53,608 nucleotides of DNA from a virus (lineage: Duplodnaviria > Caudoviricetes): positions 1-53,608 of IMG/VR virus record IMGVR_UViG_3300025646_000055; one strand, given 5' to 3'. Within the stretch, counting starts at the first letter, position 1. Every line of letters begins with the position of its first letter. A program made the translations under genes and the position numbers. Below, piece after piece: positions 2,680 to 16,282 of this stretch. The notes beneath the pieces were generated by a model that worked only from the letters and a program-made list of their open reading frames with translations, was not told where the DNA came from and searched no databases.

Positions 2680-3087
2680 ATGAAAAAATCAGATTTACAA
2701 CAGCGACTTGAAGACGTAGAAAAAGAACTTGCAGAAGCAAAGGCATTGCTTGCAAAAGTAGAAACTAAGTCAAGGGTCGTGGACTCGGTGAAGGATATAC
2801 CTAATAGAGATTGGTTTATAACTTCTGGAGGAGAGGTAGAAGATGTTAGTAGCGACGACCTTAACCAACTGTCAACCAAAGAACGAGCAGAGGCAGTACT
2901 TGCGCTTATTCAGCTAATTGAAATCCATGCAGCTATTGAGCAGGAACTTAATGCGGACTATAATATTCTGATAGTAAGTTCTTGTGAAAATAAATACATT
3001 CACTTCTATTTTGAATCAGATGAACTTGCAGAAGAGTTTCAATCCAAGCACAAGGACTTAATCGAAACCGTAAGAAAAGGGTTATGA
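2680..3087 (+). CDS. hypothetical protein with N-terminal coiled coil
   Basis: ORF within an operon. Confidence 0.75.
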   Translation: MKKSDLQQRLEDVEKELAEAKALLAKVETKSRVVDSVKDIPNRDWFITSGGEVEDVSSDDLNQLSTKERAEAVLALIQLIEIHAAIEQELNADYNILIVSSCENKYIHFYFESDELAEEFQSKHKDLIETVRKGL

Positions 3088-3620
3088 AAACAACACTAAA
3101 CCTAATTAGGCTTTGTCAACCGTGTGAGGAATCATGGAAAACCTTACTAACCTTTCTCAACAAGACAGAGGCAGACCATGAAGAATTAAGCATCAGAACG
3201 ATTCTTGATGCTTGCGGCGTATCAGATGCTATTTGGGCGCTAAGAGCAGTCGATGGTCATGATAAAGAGATACGTCTATTTGCTTGTGATTGTGCAGAAT
3301 CTGTACTTCATATCTTCGAATCCGAATATCCTAACGACAACAGACCAAAAATGGTTATTGAAACAGCTAGACGATACGCTAATGGACAAGCCACAAAACA
3401 AGAGTTAAATGTTGATGGTTCTGCTGCTTGGAATGCTGCTTGGAATGCTGCTTGGTCTGCTGCTAAGGATGCTGCTAGTTCTGCTGCTTGGTCTGCTAGT
3501 GATGCTGCTTGGTCTGCTGCTGGGAATGCTGCTAGGGTTGCTGCTTGGGGTGCTGTTTCCGCTGCTGATAGTGATGTCGAACTAGAAAAACAAAAAGAGT
3601 TTTTACTTAAGTACATTTAA
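3084..3620 (+). CDS. phage protein with Imm5-like helical domain and xAAW repeats
   Basis: RLFACDCAESVL...DNRPKMVIETARRYA followed by SAAW/NAAW repeats. Confidence 0.7.
   Translation: MKTTLNLIRLCQPCEESWKTLLTFLNKTEADHEELSIRTILDACGVSDAIWALRAVDGHDKEIRLFACDCAESVLHIFESEYPNDNRPKMVIETARRYANGQATKQELNVDGSAAWNAAWNAAWSAAKDAASSAAWSASDAAWSAAGNAARVAAWGAVSAADSDVELEKQKEFLLKYI
3420..3570 (+). repeat. degenerate 12-nt coding tandem repeat (NNTGCTGCTTGG)
   Basis: About 12 units encoding xAAx. Confidence 0.85.
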
Positions 3621-7906: not shown

Positions 7907-8155
7907 ATGGATATAGAAGTTTTAGCGGATAAATACGAAGAATTAGAAAATCTAAAAAATCAAATAAACCAAGAAGAAATGGAAAAAGAAAATTTAATTA
8001 ATGAATTAGTTTTTTTAACTCAAAAACGTGATGAATTATGGGAATACCATCCAAACAATCCTGAGGGGAAAAACTTAATTAAAGTTGTAAAAGAATTAAG
8101 TGAACGAATTGATCAAATAAATGATCAATTAATTAAAAAAGAAAGTCAAAAATAA
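7907..8155 (+). CDS. coiled-coil hypothetical protein
   Basis: ORF within an operon. Confidence 0.7.
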   Translation: MDIEVLADKYEELENLKNQINQEEMEKENLINELVFLTQKRDELWEYHPNNPEGKNLIKVVKELSERIDQINDQLIKKESQK

Positions 8156-8156
8156 T

Positions 8157-8187
8157 TTGGATATTAGTTAACTTTTTTGTATATTCA
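8157..8187 (+). promoter_or_regulatory. promoter heading the RNA island
   Basis: TTGG-N19-TATATTCA. Confidence 0.7.
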
Positions 8188-8214
8188 CATATGTATAATT
8201 AAATAAATTAAAAG

Positions 8215-8337
8215 GTGAAACATTTACTCAACATATCAATTCAAGAACGTTTAGCAGTAACCGCTGTTATGACAACGTCATGGGATTATAGCAGAGGGTT
8301 TAATCCGAAGCAATTTCCCGGGTTTAATATAAGTTGA
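8215..8337 (+). CDS. candidate leader peptide (40 aa, MKHLLNISIQERLAVTAVMTTSWDYSRGFNPKQFPGFNIS)
   Basis: GTG start after an A-rich region, located between promoter and terminator. Confidence 0.55.
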   Translation: MKHLLNISIQERLAVTAVMTTSWDYSRGFNPKQFPGFNIS

Positions 8338-8366
8338 GTATTTTTAAAATATAAAAACTAAAATTT

Positions 8367-8396
8367 AAACCCGGTCCTAAAAAACCGGGTTTTTTT
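8367..8396 (+). terminator. intrinsic terminator / attenuator
   Basis: AAACCCGGT/ACCGGGTTT stem plus T-run. Confidence 0.8.
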
Positions 8397-8413
8397 GTTC
8401 TTTAATATAAAAT

Positions 8414-8487
8414 CTAGATGCGATCCATTGGTGTGGTTACCTCACTTGGACTGAGGGTTATTGAGAGTTCGAGTCTCTCCATCTAGA
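8414..8487 (+). tRNA. tRNA-Pro(TGG), atypical D arm
   Basis: CTAGATG/CATCTAG; CCTCA-CTTGGAC-TGAGG. Confidence 0.7.
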
Positions 8488-8492
8488 CATAT

Positions 8493-8565
8493 GCCTTCGT
8501 AGCTCAGTTGGTAGAGCTCCTGATTTGTAATCAGATGGTCATCGGTTCGAATCCGGTCGAAGGCT
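8493..8565 (+). tRNA. tRNA-Thr(TGT)
   Basis: Cloverleaf, loop TTTGTAA. Confidence 0.92.
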
Positions 8566-8600
8566 CAAATGTTGAGTCATATCAACGTCATACCAGATAT

Positions 8601-8631
8601 TTGGTTATATAAATATATATTCGTATATTTA
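8601..8631 (+). promoter_or_regulatory. sigma-A-type promoter, followed by boxA-like GTTCCTTGACAT (8668-8679)
   Basis: TTGG-N19-TATATTTA. Confidence 0.75.
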
Positions 8632-8693
8632 CCAAGTTGAAAAATGATAAGATAATTCAACAAAAAAGTTCCTTGACATCTTGAAAAACCTGA

Positions 8694-8780
8694 GGAGGCG
8701 TGGCAGAGTGGTCGATTGCACCGGTCTTGAAAACCGGAGGTCGCGAAAGCGGCCCGTAGGTTCGAATCCTACCGCCTCCG
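8694..8780 (+). tRNA. tRNA-Ser(TGA)
   Basis: Cloverleaf with long variable arm, loop CTTGAAA, G73. Confidence 0.95.
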
Positions 8781-8786
8781 CAATGA

Positions 8787-8879
8787 AATGAATGTGCCGA
8801 CATAATGGCGGTATTGGTGCAACTCCAATTAGTCAGTGAAAAAACGAGCCACAAGTAGTTCAAACCTACCACATTCATT
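8787..8879 (+). ncRNA. tRNA-like RNA with extended acceptor stem and 4-bp T stem
   Basis: AATGAATGTG/CACATTCATT; ATTGG-TGCAACT-CCAAT; GTAG-TTCAAAC-CTAC. Confidence 0.5.
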
Positions 8880-8885
8880 AATTAT

Positions 8886-8959
8886 TGTCCTGTCGTATAA
8901 TGGGAGTACATCTGATTTTGGTTCAGAGAATGGAGGTTCGAATCCTTCCGGGACAACCA
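8886..8959 (+). tRNA. tRNA-Gln(TTG), CCA encoded
   Basis: Cloverleaf, loop TTTTGGT. Confidence 0.92.
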
Positions 8960-8961
8960 AT

Positions 8962-9055
8962 TCTTAAACTGATGGAGCCCGAAAGGGAACGTAGAAGCGG
9001 TAGGATAAATTTGCAAAGAGGCCTACAACGTTTGCAACTCAAATTTGGTTTAAGA
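8962..9055 (+). ncRNA. unassigned structured RNA with probable pseudoknot
   Basis: Closing TCTTAAACT/GGTTTAAGA; CCC-GAAA-GGG; GTAGG/CCTAC pairs into the loop of the TTGCAAA/TTTGCAA hairpin. Confidence 0.5.
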
Positions 9056-9259
9056 CTTCTAAAAGTTACTTGTAACGATAGAAACCCGCGAGATGAGTTC
9101 ATCTCTCCTAACTCTCACTTAATTGTGATTAAAACACGCGAGATAATGGTTAGGATTTCAGAACTCCGTTACATTTAACCAGGCTAGACTGATTAACTGC
9201 AGTAAAGGTTTAGAATGATGCCCTCGGATGCTGCCGCACCTATGGGTAGTTTTAGAAGT
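9055..9259 (+). ncRNA. unassigned ~205-nt multibranch RNA
   Basis: ACTTCTAAAA/TTTTAGAAGT closing helix; TGTAACG/CGTTACA; TCCTAACT/GGTTAGGA. Confidence 0.5.
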
Positions 9260-9268
9260 AAAATATAT

Positions 9269-9344
9269 TGCGATGGCGGTACAGAGACGTTCTCATGAGA
9301 CGTATTGGGTAGCTCCCCTCCGAGGTTCGATTCCTCAATCGCAA
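9269..9344 (+). tRNA. aberrant tRNA(CAT): reduced D arm, long variable arm
   Basis: TGCGAT/ATCGCA; ACGTT-CTCATGA-GACGT; GAGG-TTCGATT-CCTC. Confidence 0.55.
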
Positions 9345-9374
9345 CAAATCTTGCAAGACTAGGTTGATAACCTT

Positions 9375-9444
9375 GTATAAGTCGTCTAAATATGTAGGAC
9401 ACCGGCGGGGTCGGAGATTTGGGTTCGAGTCCCATTCTTATACA
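9375..9444 (+). ncRNA. tRNA-like RNA with collapsed anticodon loop
   Basis: GTATAAG/CTTATAC; D and T arms present; CCGGC-GGG-GTCGG. Confidence 0.6.
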
Positions 9445-9458
9445 AAACAATCAAATTT

Positions 9459-9531
9459 GACTTCGTAGCTTAGCAGGTAGAGCACTCCGCTTTTAACGGA
9501 GGGGTCGTGAGTTCGAGTCTCACCGGGGTCA
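9459..9531 (+). tRNA. tRNA-Lys(TTT)
   Basis: Cloverleaf, loop CTTTTAA. Confidence 0.93.
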
Positions 9532-9648
9532 CAAGCTGTTCTGCATCAGAAGTGCTGGTTAGTGAAACACCTAATCGATGAGCCCATCAAAATGTGAGTG
9601 GTTTTTTACTGTGGCGGTTTCCACTCAAATTAAAAACACAGCCCACCT

Positions 9649-9731
9649 GCCCGAGTGTTGGAATTGGTAGACAAAGCGGTCTTAGAAACCGTGGCCTTAA
9701 TGGCTTGAGAGTTCGAGTCTCTCCTTGGGTA
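9649..9731 (+). tRNA. tRNA-Leu(TAG)
   Basis: Cloverleaf with variable arm, loop CTTAGAA. Confidence 0.93.
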
Positions 9732-9831
9732 CAATTGTTAAAGCAGTTATAGTAAAGAACACGTGATAACTTTACTATAAGCGGTACATATGTAAAAGAA
9801 AACTGCTGGATGTGCCGAACAGTTAGAATTT

Positions 9832-9919
9832 AGTCAGGTGGCGTAATTGGTAACGTAGGTGGTTCAATTCCACAATACCCATGGTTAGAGTGTTACAGGT
9901 TCGAATCCTGTCCTGACTA
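9832..9919 (+). ncRNA. AGTCAGG family copy 3 (possible Leu-CAA)
   Basis: Same acceptor and T arm; GTGG-TTCAATT-CCAC gives a CAA anticodon in a 4-bp stem. Confidence 0.7.
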
Positions 9920-9999
9920 CCTAGCCTTTGTTTGGGGCAAGCGCTCGTACACGTTGCGGGCAAGTCAATACTAAACACACACAGCTGGGAAGACAGCGG

Positions 10000-10108
10000 A
10001 GTCAGGTGGTGGAATTGGCAGACACAAACCCTTTAAGGCGCCAGGGGTTGTAACAGATGAGTTCTCATCCAATAGTGCAGATTACAGGTTCGAATCCTGT
10101 CCTGACTA
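10000..10108 (+). ncRNA. AGTCAGG family copy 4
   Basis: Same acceptor and T arm; enlarged anticodon and variable arms. Confidence 0.75.
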
Positions 10109-10114
10109 CAAAAT

Positions 10115-10262
10115 GTTGGTATCCAAGTGGGTGAAGTAGGGGATATACATTTAAATAAAACACGAACGGTGAAAATATGGAATCGGCCGATAAACATAGA
10201 AGTAACAACGAAGCCCGTGACACCAAGTAGATGCCTCCACGTGGCGGTGTTGGATAACCAAC
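10115..10262 (+). ncRNA. unassigned ~150-nt RNA
   Basis: GTTGGTATCCAA/TTGGATAACCAAC closing helix. Confidence 0.45.
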
Positions 10263-10280
10263 CAAATCTACGATTAAAAT

Positions 10281-10377
10281 AGTCAGGTGGCGGAATTGGT
10301 AGACGCTTTTAGGGATTAACTCACCAGAGGGTTGTATCTGTTATGGATACGTACAGGTTCAAATCCTGTCCTGACTA
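10281..10377 (+). ncRNA. AGTCAGG family copy 5
   Basis: Same acceptor, D and T arms; irregular anticodon arm; GTATC/GATAC variable arm. Confidence 0.75.
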
Positions 10378-10381
10378 CAAT

Positions 10382-10456
10382 GCACCTTTAGCTCAGTTGG
10401 TTCAGAGCGTTACCCTTACAAGGTAGATGTCGGTGGTTCGAATCCATCAAGGTGCA
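10382..10456 (+). tRNA. tRNA-Val(TAC)
   Basis: Cloverleaf, loop CTTACAA. Confidence 0.93.
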
Positions 10457-10467
10457 CAATTTATTCA

Positions 10468-10537
10468 ACCTTTAGTCGAAGTGGCTTAAGACAATCGGCG
10501 GGAGCCGATAAAACATGGGTTCGAATCCCATAAGGTA
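10468..10537 (+). ncRNA. tRNA-like RNA with a GNRA tetraloop in place of the anticodon loop
   Basis: ATCGGC-GGGA-GCCGAT; ATGGG-TTCGAAT-CCCAT; short acceptor ACCTT/AAGGT. Confidence 0.6.
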
Positions 10538-10607
10538 AAAAGCACAACCTGTTTCCGGTTAATGTGAAATAGAATAAAGGTAAAACAACCAGAGTCGACG
10601 CTGGTTG

Positions 10608-10706
10608 GACCGAGTGGTGAAATTGGTAAACACAAAGGGTGCAGAGCCCTTGGAAGTGGAATGACGTCTGAAGCTTCTGTTGTAGGTTCGAGTCCTACCT
10701 TGGTCA
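10608..10706 (+). tRNA. atypical tRNA-Leu(CAG): G33, very long variable arm
   Basis: GACCGAG/CTTGGTC; AAGGG-TGCAGAG-CCCTT. Confidence 0.6.
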
Positions 10707-10713
10707 CTATTAT

Positions 10714-10796
10714 TGGAGTGTTGAGCAATTGGTTGGCTCGGCAGACTGTAAATCTGTTGCCTTACGGCCTTGGGGGTTCGAGTCCCTCCGCTCCAA
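10714..10796 (+). tRNA. tRNA-Tyr(GTA)
   Basis: Cloverleaf, loop CTGTAAA. Confidence 0.92.
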
Positions 10797-10845
10797 CAAA
10801 TCTTAGGAGTAATTAACCTAAGACTGACAGGTTCGAAACTGTCGA

Positions 10846-10942
10846 TTGATAGTAGTGTAGTGGGCACACTGCTCCCGGGGCGCTCGGTAAAATGAGGCTG
10901 TCCAGGAGCGGGGGTAAAGAGGTTCGAATCCTCCCATATCAA
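10846..10942 (+). ncRNA. tRNA-like RNA with ~45-nt extended anticodon arm
   Basis: TTGATA/TATCAA; GTGT/ACAC D stem; GCTCC...GGAGC long arm; GAGG-TTCGAAT-CCTC. Confidence 0.55.
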
Positions 10943-11110
10943 CTAAGGCTTTAGTCTATCCGAGACGCTAGTAAGGTTGGAGGATAAAGGTGGACGGCAA
11001 TCCACACACTTTTGAATTTGATACACTAGAAGTAGACTCGCCTCTTTGCCGAGAGGTGTTAAAAAATGGTTTCGTGGGCGAGTTTCCATCACAAAAAGCC
11101 GGCCCACCAT

Positions 11111-11184
11111 ACATTGGTAGCTCAATTGGATAGAGCACTTCACTACGGATGAAGGGGTTGAGGGTTCGAGTCCTTCCCAATGTA
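11111..11184 (+). tRNA. tRNA-Arg(ACG)
   Basis: Cloverleaf, loop CTACGGA. Confidence 0.93.
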
Positions 11185-11188
11185 CAAA

Positions 11189-11292
11189 GTTCTATTTGGT
11201 GTAATTAGGCAACACTTCGGTTCGAATCCGAATGCTTTATACAATAAAGTAACAGAGAGGTTGGATGTGGGTTCGAGTCCCACAATAGAACG
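11189..11292 (+). tRNA. atypical tRNA-Ser(CGA)-like with oversized variable region
   Basis: GTTCTATT/AATAGAAC; TTCGG-TTCGAAT-CCGAA. Confidence 0.55.
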
Positions 11293-11297
11293 AGTTT

Positions 11298-11370
11298 GGT
11301 ACTGTAGCTCAGTTGGTAGAGCACCTGATTGAAGCTCAGGGTGTCAGCAGTTCGAATCTGTTCAGTACCA
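11298..11370 (+). tRNA. tRNA-Phe(GAA)
   Basis: Cloverleaf, loop TTGAAGC. Confidence 0.92.
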
Positions 11371-11377
11371 CTTTTAT

Positions 11378-11450
11378 ACATCTATGGTGTTAACGGTTAG
11401 CATGATGGTCTCCAAAACCAGAGGTAAGGGTTCGAATCCTTTTAGATGTG
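11378..11450 (+). tRNA. tRNA-Trp(CCA)
   Basis: Cloverleaf, loop CTCCAAA. Confidence 0.9.
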
Positions 11451-11456
11451 CAATAT

Positions 11457-11528
11457 TCCCCTTTAGCTCAGCGGTAGAGCAGAGAGCTGTTAACTCTAAG
11501 GTCGTTGGTTCGAATCCAGCAAGGGGAG
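11457..11528 (+). tRNA. tRNA-Asn(GTT)
   Basis: Cloverleaf, loop CTGTTAA. Confidence 0.93.
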
Positions 11529-11530
11529 CA

Positions 11531-11612
11531 AATACTTTTGGAAAAGTTGGCACTAGCACCACAGTTGCAAATGTAGGACTAGGTGTAGGTTCGAATCCTA
11601 CTATGAAGTGTT
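11531..11612 (+). pseudogene. degenerate tRNA-like remnant
   Basis: Intact T arm GTAGG-TTCGAAT-CCTAC; poor acceptor and D arms. Confidence 0.4.
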
Positions 11613-11672
11613 TACCACCGAGATGCTGCCGAGCTGAGGAGGTGGTTAAGAAATATCCCTAAATACGGACCA

Positions 11673-11746
11673 CGGTGTGTGGCCAAGATGGTTAAGGCAC
11701 CTCGCTGATAACGAGGAAATCGGAGGTTCAAATCCTCCCTCACCGA
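11673..11746 (+). tRNA. tRNA-Ile(GAT)
   Basis: Cloverleaf, loop CTGATAA. Confidence 0.9.
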
Positions 11747-11779
11747 CTCGTGTAAGAGCACTGTGCTCTAACATAACCT

Positions 11780-11853
11780 GGCGAGGTAGCTCAGTTGGTT
11801 AGAGCGTTGGAGTCATAACCCAAAGGTCATAGGTTCGATTCCTATTCTCGCTA
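11780..11853 (+). tRNA. tRNA-Met(CAT), elongator type
   Basis: GGCGAGG/TCTCGCT; loop GTCATAA. Confidence 0.85.
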
Positions 11854-11865
11854 CAAATAACTTTC

Positions 11866-12045
11866 CGCGACATGGAGAAGTGGGCAAGTTTTGATTTAAG
11901 TAATCAGAGTACTTTGGTTTCTTAAGAAAGGATTAGATTTTAAATGGTGGTGGAGTACTACACCTAATGGAAGTTACTAATCTTAGAAACGTATCTCGCC
12001 GGGGGCATGACCCGGAGATCGTAGGTTCGAATCCTACTGTCGCAA
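11866..12045 (+). tRNA. initiator-type tRNA-fMet(CAT) with ~108-nt D-loop insertion
   Basis: C1:A72 mismatch; CCGGG/CCCGG anticodon stem; loop GGCATGA; D stem GAGA/TCTC split by insert ~11884-11991. Confidence 0.75.
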
Positions 12046-12047
12046 CT

Positions 12048-12264
12048 AAAAGAACAACCTATCGCTCTACGGAGAGGAAACTCAGGACGGCACTGCTTAA
12101 GGTAGGAGATTCAAATTATAGGACCTGGATGTTGCCTATAATCCCTGAATCTCTTATACTACCGAGGCCGCAACACAAAACAGTCTATAAGGGTGAGCAG
12201 CTTGGATAAGGTAGTGGCAACAAGGTAAATGATAGGATAAACAGAATCCTGGTTATGTTCTTTT
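12048..12264 (+). ncRNA. rnpB: compact RNase P RNA-like gene
   Basis: P1 AAAAGAACA/TGTTCTTTT; P2 CCTATC/GATAGG; CR-I GAGGAAACTCAGGA; CR-V ACAGAATCCTGGTTA; CR-II/III-like GCAACACAAAAC and GGGTGAG. Confidence 0.8.
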
Positions 12265-12270
12265 AAATAT

Positions 12271-12346
12271 GGTGTCTGTAGTGTTAGTGGAATAAGCACG
12301 TCAGTTTGTGGTTCTGATAGGATGAGTTCGAATCTCATCAGACACA
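12271..12346 (+). tRNA. tRNA-His(GTG), G-1 encoded, A73
   Basis: Cloverleaf, loop TTGTGGT. Confidence 0.88.
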
Positions 12347-12351
12347 CTAAG

Positions 12352-12471
12352 AAGAGGCAGTTCAAGCTGTAGTTGAGAGGTAGAGTGTATTAATGTCTGA
12401 AAAAGGGTTTATAGTAGGATGGCGTCACTCATTGCACTCAACCAGAAACCCTGCAACACACGGAGCCTCTT
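12352..12471 (+). ncRNA. unassigned pseudoknotted RNA
   Basis: AAGAGGC/GCCTCTT closing helix; interleaved GTTGAG/CTCAAC and AGGGTTT/AAACCCT. Confidence 0.5.
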
Positions 12472-12480
12472 TTTTTTTAT

Positions 12481-12551
12481 GGTTCTTTGACCGAGTGGTT
12501 AGGTGAAGGTCTGCAAAACCTTTTACATTGGTTCGAATCCAATAAGAACCT
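12481..12551 (+). tRNA. tRNA-Cys(GCA)
   Basis: Cloverleaf, loop CTGCAAA, U73. Confidence 0.93.
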
Positions 12552-12564
12552 CAATTATTAATTT

Positions 12565-12648
12565 GGAGAGTAACCCTTGATGGTGATAGGGCTTGCCTGC
12601 TAAGCAATGTGTACATTCGTGTATATGGTTCGAATCCATTGCTCTCCG
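12565..12648 (+). tRNA. tRNA-Ser(GCT)
   Basis: Cloverleaf with variable arm, loop CTGCTAA. Confidence 0.88.
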
Positions 12649-12664
12649 CTAAAAAGGATAAGTC

Positions 12665-13120
12665 ATGAAAATATTTAAACGAGTTAACGGACAAAAGGTT
12701 ACGGATATTGTTGAATATACAATTGATATTATCCGTAAAGACCCATATGTAGAAATACATATAGGAACAGATTCTCAAAGTGAAGGTGAATGGACAACTT
12801 ATGTTACAGCTATTGCATATAGATTTGGTACAAGAGGTGTTCATTATATTTACCACAAAGAACGAGTTCCAAGAATACGTGATAGATACACTAAACTATT
12901 TAAAGAAGCTGAATTAACAATTGAATTAGCTGAATGGTTTACTAAGCGTGTTAAGAGTGTAAGAATAGAATTAGATTTTGATTACAATAAAGATGAAAGA
13001 TATTGGTCTCAAAAATTAATTAGTTCTACAGTAGGTTGGGCACAGGCTTTAGGATACAAAGTTAATGTGAAACCAGTTAAACAAATTGCTACAAGAGCAG
13101 CAGATTATCATTGTAGATAA
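12665..13120 (+). CDS. RNase H-like YkuK/DUF458-family protein
   Basis: IHIGTDSQ...L.KEAELT...IELDFD...KP...ATRAAD. Confidence 0.8.
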   Translation: MKIFKRVNGQKVTDIVEYTIDIIRKDPYVEIHIGTDSQSEGEWTTYVTAIAYRFGTRGVHYIYHKERVPRIRDRYTKLFKEAELTIELAEWFTKRVKSVRIELDFDYNKDERYWSQKLISSTVGWAQALGYKVNVKPVKQIATRAADYHCR

Positions 13121-13132
13121 TTTAAAAAAAAC

Positions 13133-13163
13133 TTGGATATTTAAGATATTGTTCGTATATTTA
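13133..13163 (+). promoter_or_regulatory. sigma-A-type promoter; boxA-like GTTCTTTGAAAT at 13311-13322
   Basis: TTGG-N19-TATATTTA. Confidence 0.75.
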
Positions 13164-13169
13164 CATATA

Positions 13170-13301
13170 ATGAAAAACAAAGAAAAAACTAAAGAAAAAA
13201 AAGAAGATTTTGGATATTTTGATAGGTATAAAAATCAAAATAACCCCAAAACTAAAAAAGAAACATTAGAAATTAGTTTATTTTCTAGATATAAAGATTA
13301 A
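13170..13301 (+). CDS. small Lys-rich peptide (43 aa)
   Basis: ATG a few nt after the promoter core; ends in a CTAGATA/TATCTAG hairpin. Confidence 0.45.
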   Translation: MKNKEKTKEKKEDFGYFDRYKNQNNPKTKKETLEISLFSRYKD

Positions 13302-13337
13302 TTTATCTAGGTTCTTTGAAATCTTGAAAAAACCAAT

Positions 13338-13410
13338 GCTTCCATGGTGTAACGGATGAGCACAAGGCCCTTCTAAGGCTTTAGTTTAGGTTCGAATCCT
13401 AATGGAAGTA
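13338..13410 (+). tRNA. tRNA-Arg(TCT)
   Basis: Cloverleaf, loop CTTCTAA. Confidence 0.92.
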
Positions 13411-13562
13411 CAGCTGTTATCTGAACTAGCACTAGGACGATAACTACCATCAGAGGAAGCTAGTCTCATGGATGGTCCTGTGGGTTGTGACCAGTACACA
13501 TAAAAAGACTCCCACCAAATAGAGTAGGTGACTGCGTTTTTGCATAAAGCTCTATTATTTAT

Positions 13563-13636
13563 CGCCCGTTCGTCTAGCGGTCTAGGACATCGCCCTTTCA
13601 CGGCGAAGATCACGAGTTCGAATCTCGTACGGGTGA
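13563..13636 (+). tRNA. tRNA-Glu(TTC)
   Basis: Cloverleaf, loop CTTTCAC. Confidence 0.93.
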
Positions 13637-13645
13637 CTATAACAT

Positions 13646-13733
13646 AGCAAGGATGAAGGCTGGTGGTGATGCCTCAGTAGTCTCATAAGCTACTACCTCA
13701 ATGAGGGTGCGGGTTCGATTCCCGCCCATGCAA
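13646..13733 (+). tRNA. atypical tRNA(CAT) with long D and variable arms
   Basis: AGTAGT-CTCATAA-GCTACT; CCTC/GAGG variable arm; mismatched acceptor. Confidence 0.6.
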
Positions 13734-13738
13734 CTAAT

Positions 13739-13823
13739 GCACTTGTGGTGAAATTGGTAGACACGCGGGACTTAAAATCCCGTCTCTATTGCAGAGGTGC
13801 CAGTTCGAGTCTGGCCAGGTGCA
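13739..13823 (+). tRNA. tRNA-Leu(TAA)
   Basis: Cloverleaf, loop CTTAAAA. Confidence 0.93.
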
Positions 13824-13831
13824 CATATATT

Positions 13832-13904
13832 GGTCCTATGGTTGAATGGCTACAATGCCACCCTGTCACGGTGCGCGGTACGGGTTCGAATCCCGTTAGG
13901 ACCG
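13832..13904 (+). tRNA. tRNA-Asp(GTC)
   Basis: Cloverleaf, loop CTGTCAC. Confidence 0.9.
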
Positions 13905-14033
13905 CAACTTAATACCGAATCGCGTTAAAGGTGAAGTAGATAACGTGTGGTGAGTTTGGAAGGTCTCACATAAAACAAAACCAAAACCTTAAGTCTACCA
14001 CGAAGAGGTGTTATCGGTGACCTCTTCATTTAT

Positions 14034-14107
14034 GGGCTGGAATGTTCCAAGGCTGGCGAATCTCCCTTGCACGGAGATTGTGGTGAGTTCGATTCTCACC
14101 TGGTCCA
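14034..14107 (+). tRNA. tRNA-Ala(TGC)
   Basis: G3:U70, loop CTTGCAC. Confidence 0.85.
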
Positions 14108-14200
14108 CATAAAAGTTGCGCAGTACGCGATTGACCGGAGTGTTTGAGACGTCCTTCCTCCAAGGCATCGATGGGTAACCAATCCCTTCCACTTTTATAC

Positions 14201-14272
14201 GCGGATGTAGTATAGTGGCTATTATGCCTGATTTCCAATCAGGAGATGTGAGTTCGATTCTCTCTATCCGCT
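14201..14272 (+). tRNA. tRNA-Gly(TCC)
   Basis: Cloverleaf, loop TTTCCAA, U73. Confidence 0.9.
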
Positions 14273-14277
14273 CAAAA

Positions 14278-14350
14278 GCGAGATTAGCTCATTTGGTAGA
14301 GCGTCTGCTTGCCAAGCAGAAGGTGGTCGGTTCGAATCCGATATCTCGCT
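14278..14350 (+). tRNA. tRNA-Gly(GCC)
   Basis: Cloverleaf, loop TTGCCAA. Confidence 0.93.
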
Positions 14351-14352
14351 CA

Positions 14353-14457
14353 AAAAGGTAATAAACTCAAAACCGAGCGATGCTTTAAAAAAGATTCACA
14401 ACTTTAGAGGTCGTTGAGTTGGGTGGTAGTAAATGTGAATACCACCTATTACCTTTT
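14353..14457 (+). ncRNA. unassigned three-way-junction RNA with loop-loop complementarity
   Basis: AAAAGGTAATA/TATTACCTTTT closing helix; ATTCACA/TGTGAAT kissing loops. Confidence 0.55.
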
Positions 14458-14463
14458 ATTTAT

Positions 14464-14542
14464 AGGGTAGTAGAGGAGTCAGGTTTATCTCGCTACATTT
14501 GGGATGTAGAGCACGCTGGTTCGAATCCAGTTTACCCTACCA
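14464..14542 (+). tRNA. tRNA-Pro(TGG), CCA encoded
   Basis: Cloverleaf, loop TTTGGGA. Confidence 0.9.
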
Positions 14543-14621
14543 TAGTATGGTCTAACAAATGCCTGTGCCAGAATGTCGACCAAAATGCAGGGATATGTAG
14601 GTAATGACTTACCATTTCACA

Positions 14622-14695
14622 GGTCCTTTAGCTCAGATGGTTAGAGCAACTGACTCATAATCAGTAGGTCGTAGGTTCAAATCCTACAAGGACCA
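14622..14695 (+). tRNA. tRNA(CAT), probably Ile2 (lysidine type)
   Basis: GGTCCTT acceptor; ACTGA-CTCATAA-TCAGT. Confidence 0.85.
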
Positions 14696-14725
14696 CTAAA
14701 AAATTAAAGGTTTTTTCAAGATAAT

Positions 14726-14794
14726 TTGGATGTTTGAAATTTTGTTTGTATATTTATGTATAATAAAGATTTAAAACAAAACGTTCTTTAACAT
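14726..14794 (+). promoter_or_regulatory. promoter (14726-14756) plus boxA-like CGTTCTTTAACAT (14782-14794)
   Basis: Motif match; directly upstream of the large RNA. Confidence 0.75.
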
Positions 14795-14804
14795 ATTAAA
14801 AAAT

Positions 14805-15750
14805 TTAGGGTTGCTTGAAATCCTTTCAGATTATTATTGACGCGTAACAGTCCGGCTGACGATTATGTAATAGTTTGATAAAGAGTAATGAGCCGTAAGG
14901 CTACGAAAGGGGATAGTCTCACACTACCTCGCTTGGCAACAAGTTCATTCAAGCAAGCAACGTTCTAAGCTCTACCTAAGAGCGCTGTCGGACCAACCGG
15001 CAGATAAGGAGAAAGTTAGTGGAATAAGTCCCTTAGGAAAGGATAAAACCAGAGCCGATCGGTGAGGTTAAAATGGGTAGCTCCATGCTTATCCATGCTA
15101 AACTAACAAAACCTGAACAGAATAAGTTGTAGAATATGAGTTTGAGTCTCGCTAAGACAAAGGCAAGTATTCATTATAAGAGGTGAAAGGGTAATATATA
15201 TAACTCCCGGAGTAATCTTGAAGTAAGGCACAGTAGGATTAGCAGTCCGAAACGCAGTTGGCGTGTCATATTTTGTAGCTCAAAAGGTTATGAAGTGACT
15301 GTTGGGGCACGTCAAAGTGAGTTAAATAACTTGTAAGTTAGCTCAGTTGGTAGAGCATCTGTCTCTTAAACAGAATGTCGAAGGTTCAACTCCTTCACTT
15401 ACTATATGAATAATATAGAATAAAAAACGCAAAGCCCCCAACGATAGTGAAAAACAAATCACCTAATTCCGTACTCAAAAGAGAATACGGAGCTTTCAAA
15501 ACTCGCAAGGTAGAGAAAGTTTGATTGGATTTCGCACCTAATTTCTTAGCGGAAATGAATGGCTCGCAAGGTCAGGGGAAGAAAAAAAATCGAGTAGTTT
15601 CACTATGACATGAGAAATGCCACTCATTAAAAAAGGCGGTGATGTTGCTAGACTTCCTTGGTGGGAGTGGATAAGTTTTTAACAAGTAGGTTTGCCCCTA
15701 TTTGGTACGAAAATGAAGGTAGTAATATATAACGTATAATCTCAGCGTTT
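14805..15750 (+). ncRNA. large (~950 nt) structured ncRNA, GOLLD-like; ends approximate
   Basis: No ORF in the track; higher GC than flanks; many GNRA hairpins; CCACTC/GAGTGG long-range pair; ends TAATCTCAGCG + T-run; adjacent to a tRNA array. Confidence 0.7.
15332..15404 (+). tRNA. tRNA-Lys(CTT) nested in the large ncRNA
   Basis: TCTGT-CTCTTAA-ACAGA; canonical D and T arms. Confidence 0.88.
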
Positions 15751-15841
15751 TTTTTAATTATTCTTCTATAAAACCATTTATACTCAATTTCCTACGAGTT
15801 ATATTTGGTTTATTTTTTTTTCTCTAGTTATATTTATAGCT

Positions 15842-16282
15842 ATGGATTTAAATAAATTTTTTAGCCACTTTATAGACAACCCTTCATCTACTTCTAAAGA
15901 TGAATTAATTACATCTTATTCAGATTTTTACAATAATCCTATTTTTAAATTAGGTATGTTTAAAAAACTAGTGTTTAATCACGTAAATTTCAATAAAAAA
16001 ATGTTATTTTCTTTATTAGACAGTGTCTCCGGTGAGAATGATAAAGAATCGCTGAAAATAAAAGAAATTAGCGAGATTATGATATATAATAAAGCATATT
16101 CTCATTTAGAAGAAGTTGATTTGAAAGCTGAAGATAATCAAAATTATATAAGACAAGCCTCAGATGAAGAACTTTTAACAGCTTGTAAATTAGCAATTAG
16201 GTTTTTTGAGGAAAGAGAGGAATATGAAAAATGTGCTAAAATTAAAATTTTAGAAGACTTAGTAACTTCTTTTATAAAATAG
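15842..16282 (+). CDS. hypothetical protein with C-terminal UVR-like motif
   Basis: AIRFFEEREEYEKCAKIK. Confidence 0.7.
   Translation: MDLNKFFSHFIDNPSSTSKDELITSYSDFYNNPIFKLGMFKKLVFNHVNFNKKMLFSLLDSVSGENDKESLKIKEISEIMIYNKAYSHLEEVDLKAEDNQNYIRQASDEELLTACKLAIRFFEEREEYEKCAKIKILEDLVTSFIK

Follow-up and report, generated by a model that had tools for sequence, protein, structure and literature searches.

The tRNA array of the phage studied here appears to be headed by a transcription attenuator coupled to translation, with a host-type boxA behind it, a reading whose chances we would put at about even. The arrangement looks like a link of tRNA output to ribosome performance, in which we infer the transcription start, the translation of the leader ORF, the kinetic competition and the physiological signal. 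In the proposed mechanism, the promoter at 8156 would initiate, at around 8192, an RNA carrying a 40-codon leader ORF; within this RNA 8318–8327 could pair with 8365–8374, and the resulting 57-nt antiterminator would occupy the 5' arm of the terminator and allow read-through. A closely following ribosome that had reached the stop codon or the codons just before it would cover 8318–8327, such that the terminator at 8367–8396 forms and the transcript ends. Those polymerases that pass would transcribe the boxA at 8397–8412 and, in analogy to rRNA operons, become termination-resistant over the untranslated tRNA genes. Brisk translation would hence yield less read-through and slow translation more; as read-through would be set by the speed of translation, the switch would report general translation capacity rather than any one amino acid.

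The cassette in its genomic setting

The window, i.e., the whole 53.6-kb stretch of DNA analysed here, is an IMG/VR virus record with an estimated completeness of 33%, which carries 29 tRNA genes at 8414–15405 and one GOLLD RNA. Its closest cultured match is the Flavobacterium phage immuto (160 kb), with 47.5% identity in the primase. All 35 of the printed phage genes (a survey that did not include the four ORFs with a listed TTG or GTG start) begin with ATG and are preceded by A-rich sequence without a Shine-Dalgarno (SD) motif; the available excerpt of one source describes Bacteroidetes as being without SD sequences (PMC6847099). The immuto match, these SD-less ATG starts and a Flavobacterium-type promoter box together make a Bacteroidota host likely, probably a Flavobacterium-like one, for this uncultured freshwater phage. 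A near-identity search of GenBank phages returned a tRNA-Ser as the sole match, and exact-pattern searches of IMG/VR with the three segments, the tRNA junction and the tRNA-Pro head gave no matches. The window-type junction was seen in metagenome contigs of three of the four runs examined (X8, X9 and X10). One X9 contig joins 8190 to 8499, which may reflect another organism or a repeat; the contigs of the RNA run X12, for which contigs alone were available, include a single one in this region (8407–8625, depth 3.6), which gives no sign of leader transcription or of an RNA end.

The promoter that had been predicted before the leader ORF is indeed present at 8156–8187 on the + strand, with a TTTG-type upstream element at 8156–8159 and a TAnnTTTG-like -7 box at 8180–8187. 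It belongs to a family of six + strand copies of one phage motif (1816, 4093, 7431, 8156, 8600 and 14725), with no copy on the - strand of the window. The motif is made up of TTTGG, a gap of about 19–20 nt and a TATATTTA-type (TAnnTTTG-like) box, and this repeated box can be equated with the sigma-A -7 box of Flavobacterium, which spans -12 to -5 and goes with a median 5' UTR of 24 bp in the accessible part of PMC9723704. By a generic sigma-70 scan, which found 30 sites in place of the 25.4 expected, the promoter at 8156 is only a 9/12 match. Transcription would probably start at around 8192, leaving a 5' UTR (8192–8214, + strand) of about 23 nt, a length typical for Flavobacterium, that is A/T-rich, without a Shine-Dalgarno and similar in context to the 35 ATG genes. 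Promoter copies before protein genes, including that at 8156, have a start codon 17–27 nt downstream, and those before RNA genes (8600, 14725 and an extra one in the homologous contig L022, see below) are followed by a boxA-like motif.

The leader ORF itself, whose A-rich, gene-like context is indirect evidence that it may be translated, extends over 8215–8337 (+ strand) from a GTG start through 40 codons to a TGA stop at 8335–8337; the GTG start contrasts with the 35/35 ATG genes and is counted against the attenuator. The intrinsic terminator also holds up: at 8367–8396 (+ strand), separated from the ORF by a 29-nt spacer, there is a stem of nine pairs, five of them G-C (8367–8375/8384–8392), with an 8-nt loop and a tract of seven Ts (8390–8396). 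A strict scan of the entire 53.6 kb, demanding a stem of at least six pairs with at least four G-C and then a T-rich tail, recovered this single site (8367–8392). Segment 1, the 5' strand of the candidate antiterminator (8318–8327, + strand), falls in codons 35–38, with the end of the duplex 6 nt before the stop codon. As had been claimed, it is the exact complement of 8365–8374, which overlaps the 5' arm of the terminator, and the two helices are mutually exclusive in that both need 8367–8374. The predicted antiterminator hairpin (8318–8374, + strand) thus has 8318–8327/8365–8374 as its outer helix, within which folding places inner helices at 8332–8335/8356–8359 and 8338–8343/8347–8352.

This complementarity is rare in shuffled sequence. 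Of 5000 dinucleotide shuffles, 43 produced a perfect complement of at least 10 nt overlapping the 5' arm (P=0.0086), and the best duplex energy is -15.7 kcal/mol, where shuffles average -8.1 +/- 2.0 (P=0.0015 to 0.002). Three control terminators gave duplex-energy shuffle P values of 0.05, 0.06 and 0.66. The fraction of the terminator 5' arm that is paired in the nascent RNA did not discriminate, as the arms of other terminators find upstream partners too (mean 0.68 over 10 sites), and was dropped as evidence.

Directly after the U-tract lies the boxA-like element (8397–8412, + strand), which agrees at 11/16 positions with a motif found upstream of Bacteroidota 23S rRNA genes. Its first nine nucleotides (8397–8405) recur exactly once more in the window, again on the + strand, at 14783 after the promoter at 14725; better copies of the element, with 14/16 positions each, are found at 8668–8683 and 14783–14798. 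The exact 16-mer is present in three related contigs, in L017 after an inserted promoter and in L032 and L033 after a terminator. When this 16-mer of the relatives was scanned across 185,579 species genomes, at least 121 hits were obtained, and about 74 of the 80 titled loci among the listed hits are Bacteroidota, as judged from their titles. In 12 of 20 loci, picked so as to favour short contigs and non-Bacteroidota ones, it is situated 27–170 nt upstream of the 23S rRNA, behind the spacer tRNAs; the copies in rRNA operons have A-rich sequence upstream and no hairpin with a U-tract. These rRNA-operon data support the call of a boxA-like site in the original prediction, with the qualification that the window copy is an 11/16 match, and the position upstream of 23S rRNA suggests, by analogy, that the motif is the boxA of Bacteroidota. 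The boxA match and the promoter type likewise suggest Bacteroidota as the host of this uncultured phage.

The terminator is followed after 17 promoter-free nt by a tRNA-Pro(UGG)-like gene (8414–8488, called by ARAGORN) and a tRNA-Thr(UGU) gene (8493–8566), both on the + strand, which are the only genes between it and the promoter at 8600. The caveat that a promoter at 8601 could bypass the switch for most of the array proved well founded: a real family promoter (8600–8631), with its own boxA-like motif (8668–8683, both + strand), lies upstream of the tRNA-Ser at 8694. At E<=1 the Rfam tRNA model does not list the tRNA at 8414–8488, which is nevertheless probably functional, given the compensatory changes seen in its T-stem in L022. 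Further along the array, a second tRNA-Pro(UGG) is found at 14464, and five Rfam tRNA or tRNA-Sec-like matches of 85–109 nt that ARAGORN did not call (10000–10108, 10608–10706, 11190–11291, 12564–12648 and 13647–13731) may be intron-bearing or degenerate tRNAs. The GOLLD RNA (15258–15748, Rfam 162.8 bits) has a tRNA-Lys(CUU) embedded at 15331–15405 and is preceded by the family promoter at 14725 and the boxA-like motif at 14783–14798; the intervening 14800–15257 is probably the 5' half of GOLLD.

Recurrence and variation in related contigs

The only homologue found of the window cassette, with which it forms family A, is in the metagenome contig L022, where the upstream protein is 83% identical; contigs of run X8 hold the L022-type junction as well as that of the window. 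Conservation of the ORF, proposed earlier as a check, is borne out: the L022 ORF begins with ATG, is likewise 40 codons long and ends at the same stop, and the reading frame is retained in all nine cassettes considered here (window, L022, family B and family C). The residues are identical to those of the window at 24/40 positions, the first ten being the same, with two synonymous changes, and the middle of the peptide replaced. The non-coding parts, i.e., the UTR, which is kept except for a 2-nt deletion, and the spacer, are as conserved as the ORF and its ends. A manual reading of 8318–8374 gives seven differences between the two, six of them compatible with the antiterminator hairpin and its two inner helices; a single A-to-G change in segment 1 retains pairing as G.U, and the loss of one T brings an eleventh pair to the L022 antiterminator. 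By duplex energy, the L022 complementarity was equalled in 1/2000 and 0/1000 shuffles. In L022 the U-tract and the boxA are separated by 64 inserted nt that include a family promoter; this is counted against the attenuator, as the tRNAs there would be independent of read-through and the cassette not always a gate.

A relative found via an array protein (L017, 59% identity) proved, in the control scan for terminators, to contain two further cassettes. One of these represents family B (L017:3885–4052, with further copies in L028, L029 and L030), in which a 36-codon ORF and a terminator are followed by a tRNA-Thr beginning about 12 nt past the U-tract. Its antiterminator has 16–17 pairs in a stem whose sequence is unrelated to that of the window, with duplex energies of -18 to -21 kcal/mol as against -8 +/- 2 and 0/1000 shuffles as good in each of the four contigs. 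In the alignment, 15–16 of 17 pairs form, with 91% of cells paired versus at most 62% when the strands are slid; 12 columns are invariant pairs, two are changed on one side and three have unpaired cells, and a shuffle control of these columns does not discriminate (393/500). The family B peptide is poorly conserved, e.g., between L017 and L029, and varies freely in its C-terminal half, while the RNA pairing persists; the ORF columns are free of gaps versus at least seven gap events in the flanks. The interval from terminator to tRNA is promoter-free in all four family B copies, as in the window, such that those tRNAs would need read-through.

The other cassette of L017 belongs to family C (L017:8463–8581, L032 and L033), with an ORF of 22–24 codons whose N-terminus resembles that of the window ORF. 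Both of its ORF indels are of 3 nt and those in the flanks of 1 nt; the 8-pair complement at the last ORF codons is not significant (P=0.038–0.116), which weighs against the attenuator. This second L017 cassette has its own promoter between the terminator and boxA, again counted against the attenuator, and like the L022 insert it points to self-contained units rather than a sole gate. The stop codon is 28–29 nt from the terminator 5' arm in family A as well as in family B, and 22 nt from it in family C; the stems differ entirely, and homology among the three families is not established. Between the first tRNA of L017 and its family B cassette there is a 173-aa ORF (3086–3607, - strand) with Cys-/His-rich motifs, which may be a homing-endonuclease-like gene.

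Across these families, the compensatory changes that had been proposed as a further check are found in the terminators and not in the antiterminators. The top terminator pair is U-A in the window and C-G in L022, and two terminator pairs of family B are changed on both sides; by these substitutions, the terminators are under selection. No antiterminator pair is changed on both sides, either in family B or between the window and L022, where one A-U has become G.U, and this is counted against the attenuator. The use of 19 of the 20 amino acids in 40 codons, to which the original prediction drew attention, is exact as a count (Cys alone is missing), but such diversity is not common to families B and C: the number of distinct amino acids is 19 in the window and 20 in L022, 16–17 in family B and 15–16 in family C. 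Among real 40-aa windows, 1.4% (157/11595) reach 19/20 and 0.16% reach 20/20; the corresponding figures for stop-free random-nucleotide ORFs are 6.9% and 1.0%. High diversity, though suggestive, thus pertains to family A only and is not a defining feature. None of the leader peptides of the window, L022, family B or family C has clustered regulatory codons for one amino acid, another point against the attenuator.

Where the window has 7.7 kb (8155–15842) comprising the leader, the 29-tRNA array and GOLLD, L007 and L010 (3240–3540) have 300 nt with one tRNA-Leu between flanking-gene orthologues (7907–8155 and 15842–16282 in the window) that are 94–96% and 66–75% identical. This short form without cassette or array is seen in eight close relatives (L007–L011 and L018–L020) and is counted against the attenuator; going by such comparisons of sequence, the tRNA array is a hypervariable island. 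In L013, which has an array, the promoter is directly upstream of the first tRNA, and no terminator cassette was found at the tRNA head in either L013 or immuto. The immuto locus (L026 1100–1320, MW353176.1 20700–20920) combines a family-like promoter with an ORF of 51 aa, immuto35A_33 (156 bp), that is almost leaderless and ends 23 nt upstream of a tRNA-Ser with no canonical terminator between.

The folding of the RNA can be compared across these contigs. When the nascent RNA is folded as far as 8374, or the equivalent position, the antiterminator has a probability of 0.97 in the window, 0.96 in L022 and 0.93 in L017. The idea that a ribosome at the end of the ORF masks 8318–8327 agrees with simple folding under a modelled ribosome footprint, which abolishes the antiterminator, lowering its probability to 0.00–0.01 when placed at the stop codon in the window and L022 and three codons earlier in L017. 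Two results count against the attenuator: a footprint exactly at the stop codon of L017 still leaves a probability of 0.76, and under equilibrium folding almost every masked state favours the terminator, so that the switch would have to be kinetic. The antiterminator and terminator helices of the window are isoenergetic (-12.8 versus -13.2 kcal/mol), and in the fold of the full-length RNA the terminator has a probability of 0.95 in the window and 0.99 in L022. The trp-type geometry that had been claimed is, in sum, real, non-random by the shuffles, retained in L022 and recurring elsewhere with other stems.

Competing readings of the cassette

The cassette could alternatively be an autonomous mini-gene that encodes a small phage protein and ends in a constitutively leaky terminator, which would serve just to insulate the RNA array from protein-coding transcription, with a fixed trickle of read-through into tRNA-Pro and tRNA-Thr and with the complement as a structural by-product. 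The promoter and boxA after the terminator in L022 and the second L017 cassette accord with such separable units, and normal phage genes show the same promoter-to-start spacing and A-rich context. An identical N-terminal decapeptide with two synonymous changes in window and L022, a similar N-terminus in family C and the annotation of immuto35A_33 directly before a tRNA, without a terminator, point the same way. Against it, no relatives of the peptide were found among 5.8 billion clusters of proteins of 22–70 aa, no PHROG matched and profile search yielded no IMG/VR locus; the absence of the ORF from the protein collections is counted against the attenuator as well. A 20-mer from the ORF had no match in metagenome contigs. 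Moreover, the middle of the peptide (window versus L022) and its C-terminal half (family B) vary while frame and RNA pairing persist, the non-coding parts are as well conserved as the ORF ends, and the reading leaves unexplained why families A and B have a non-random complement to this arm of the terminator. We regard it as unlikely. The persistence of the frame in 9/9 cassettes, with start and stop, also weighs on the converse reading, in which the frame is incidental and the element is either a ribosome-independent RNA switch, governed by polymerase speed or by a trans factor (protein, tRNA or sRNA), or a small RNA of about 205 nt. ORF indels that are in frame (family C) or absent (family B) and the fixed distance from stop codon to terminator likewise speak against an RNA-only element. 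Over the leader, no Rfam family reaches threshold (Trp_leader RF00513 attains 24.2 bits where its gathering score is 41, E=0.23, and spans 8329–8398, mostly terminator), and T-box gives no match at E<=1. What speaks for it is that 6/200 shuffles fold as well as the full-length RNA (z=-2.3), that a closing helix (8225–8236/8327–8340) is predicted in both the window and L022, that the UTR and spacer are as highly conserved as the ORF and that the window ORF starts with GTG; on balance we consider it improbable.

Least probable, and in our view very unlikely, is that a terminator happened to have an accidental upstream complement and that the ORF is a spurious one in an AT-rich intergenic stretch. 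The pattern was admittedly picked from 53 kb of searched sequence, open stretches of 40 codons are not rare, and the controls show that upstream partners of terminator arms are common in folds; against this stand the shuffle P of 0.002–0.009 in the window, the conservation of the layout in L022 and its independent recurrence in family B.

Comparison with known systems

Phage tRNA arrays have usually been viewed either as supplementing codon usage in a fixed manner or as countering defences that target tRNA. If the array is gated in the way proposed, tRNA supply would be subject to feedback from ribosome performance; neither such a loop for tRNA genes nor phage tRNA control of this kind was found in the non-subscription literature searched. 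A leader-ORF attenuator coupled to a host-mimicking boxA would constitute a concrete, testable control circuit for tRNA arrays, and would extend ribosome-mediated attenuation to stable-RNA genes and to an SD-independent phylum. More tentatively, and with some doubt, it may be proposed that Bacteroidota phages gate their tRNA arrays by a general sensor of translation capacity with an arbitrary leader peptide, the boxA then locking antitermination; such a gate could be opened by the codon-tRNA mismatch of an AT-rich phage, by host shut-off or by tRNA-cleaving defences. That the leader senses general tRNA shortage, such as might follow anticodon-nuclease attack, is speculation. Clues for leader-peptide attenuation in a Flavobacterium appear in the available portion of PMC9723704.

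The leader-peptide attenuators of the trp, his, leu, thr and pheA operons resemble the phage cassette in having a short ORF, a terminator before the regulated genes and an antiterminator that shares a strand with it, with an ORF end positioned for the ribosome terminating there to mask the antiterminator's 5' strand. They differ in possessing a run of codons for one amino acid, which is absent from the phage leader, and a protector (1:2) hairpin, for which the phage nascent fold has no clear counterpart, so that an untranslated leader is predicted by the folding model to read through rather than terminate. The setting too is different, the present element being in a phage, with tRNA as its output and a probable Bacteroidota host that does not use Shine-Dalgarno sequences. 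Closer in some respects, as far as the accessible parts of the sources go, are the macrolide-inducible mef/mel(msrD) system (PMC4335068) and yxjB of B. subtilis (PMC6851288), which share the three-segment design with a leader that needs no amino-acid-specific codons, and in which a held-back ribosome lets the antiterminator form. These respond to antibiotics through stalling by the nascent peptide and control resistance genes, whereas here the output is tRNA and there is no known stalling motif.

The boxA of rRNA operons, which is NusB/NusE-dependent and serves processive antitermination, is apparently paralleled by the phage motif both in sequence, this being the one 27–170 nt upstream of Bacteroidota 23S rRNA, and in placement, since the phage copies precede stable-RNA genes after three promoters and this terminator. 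The copy at 8397 departs from it in matching at 11/16 positions and in directly following a terminator U-tract instead of a promoter, and is hence a putative site. A final parallel may be struck with pyrBI of enterobacteria, whose leader ORF is also some 40 codons long and lacks special codons, and where the outcome is set by the closeness of ribosome and polymerase. The sign is the reverse: in pyrBI a close ribosome prevents termination, whereas in the phage leader a close ribosome is predicted to favour it.
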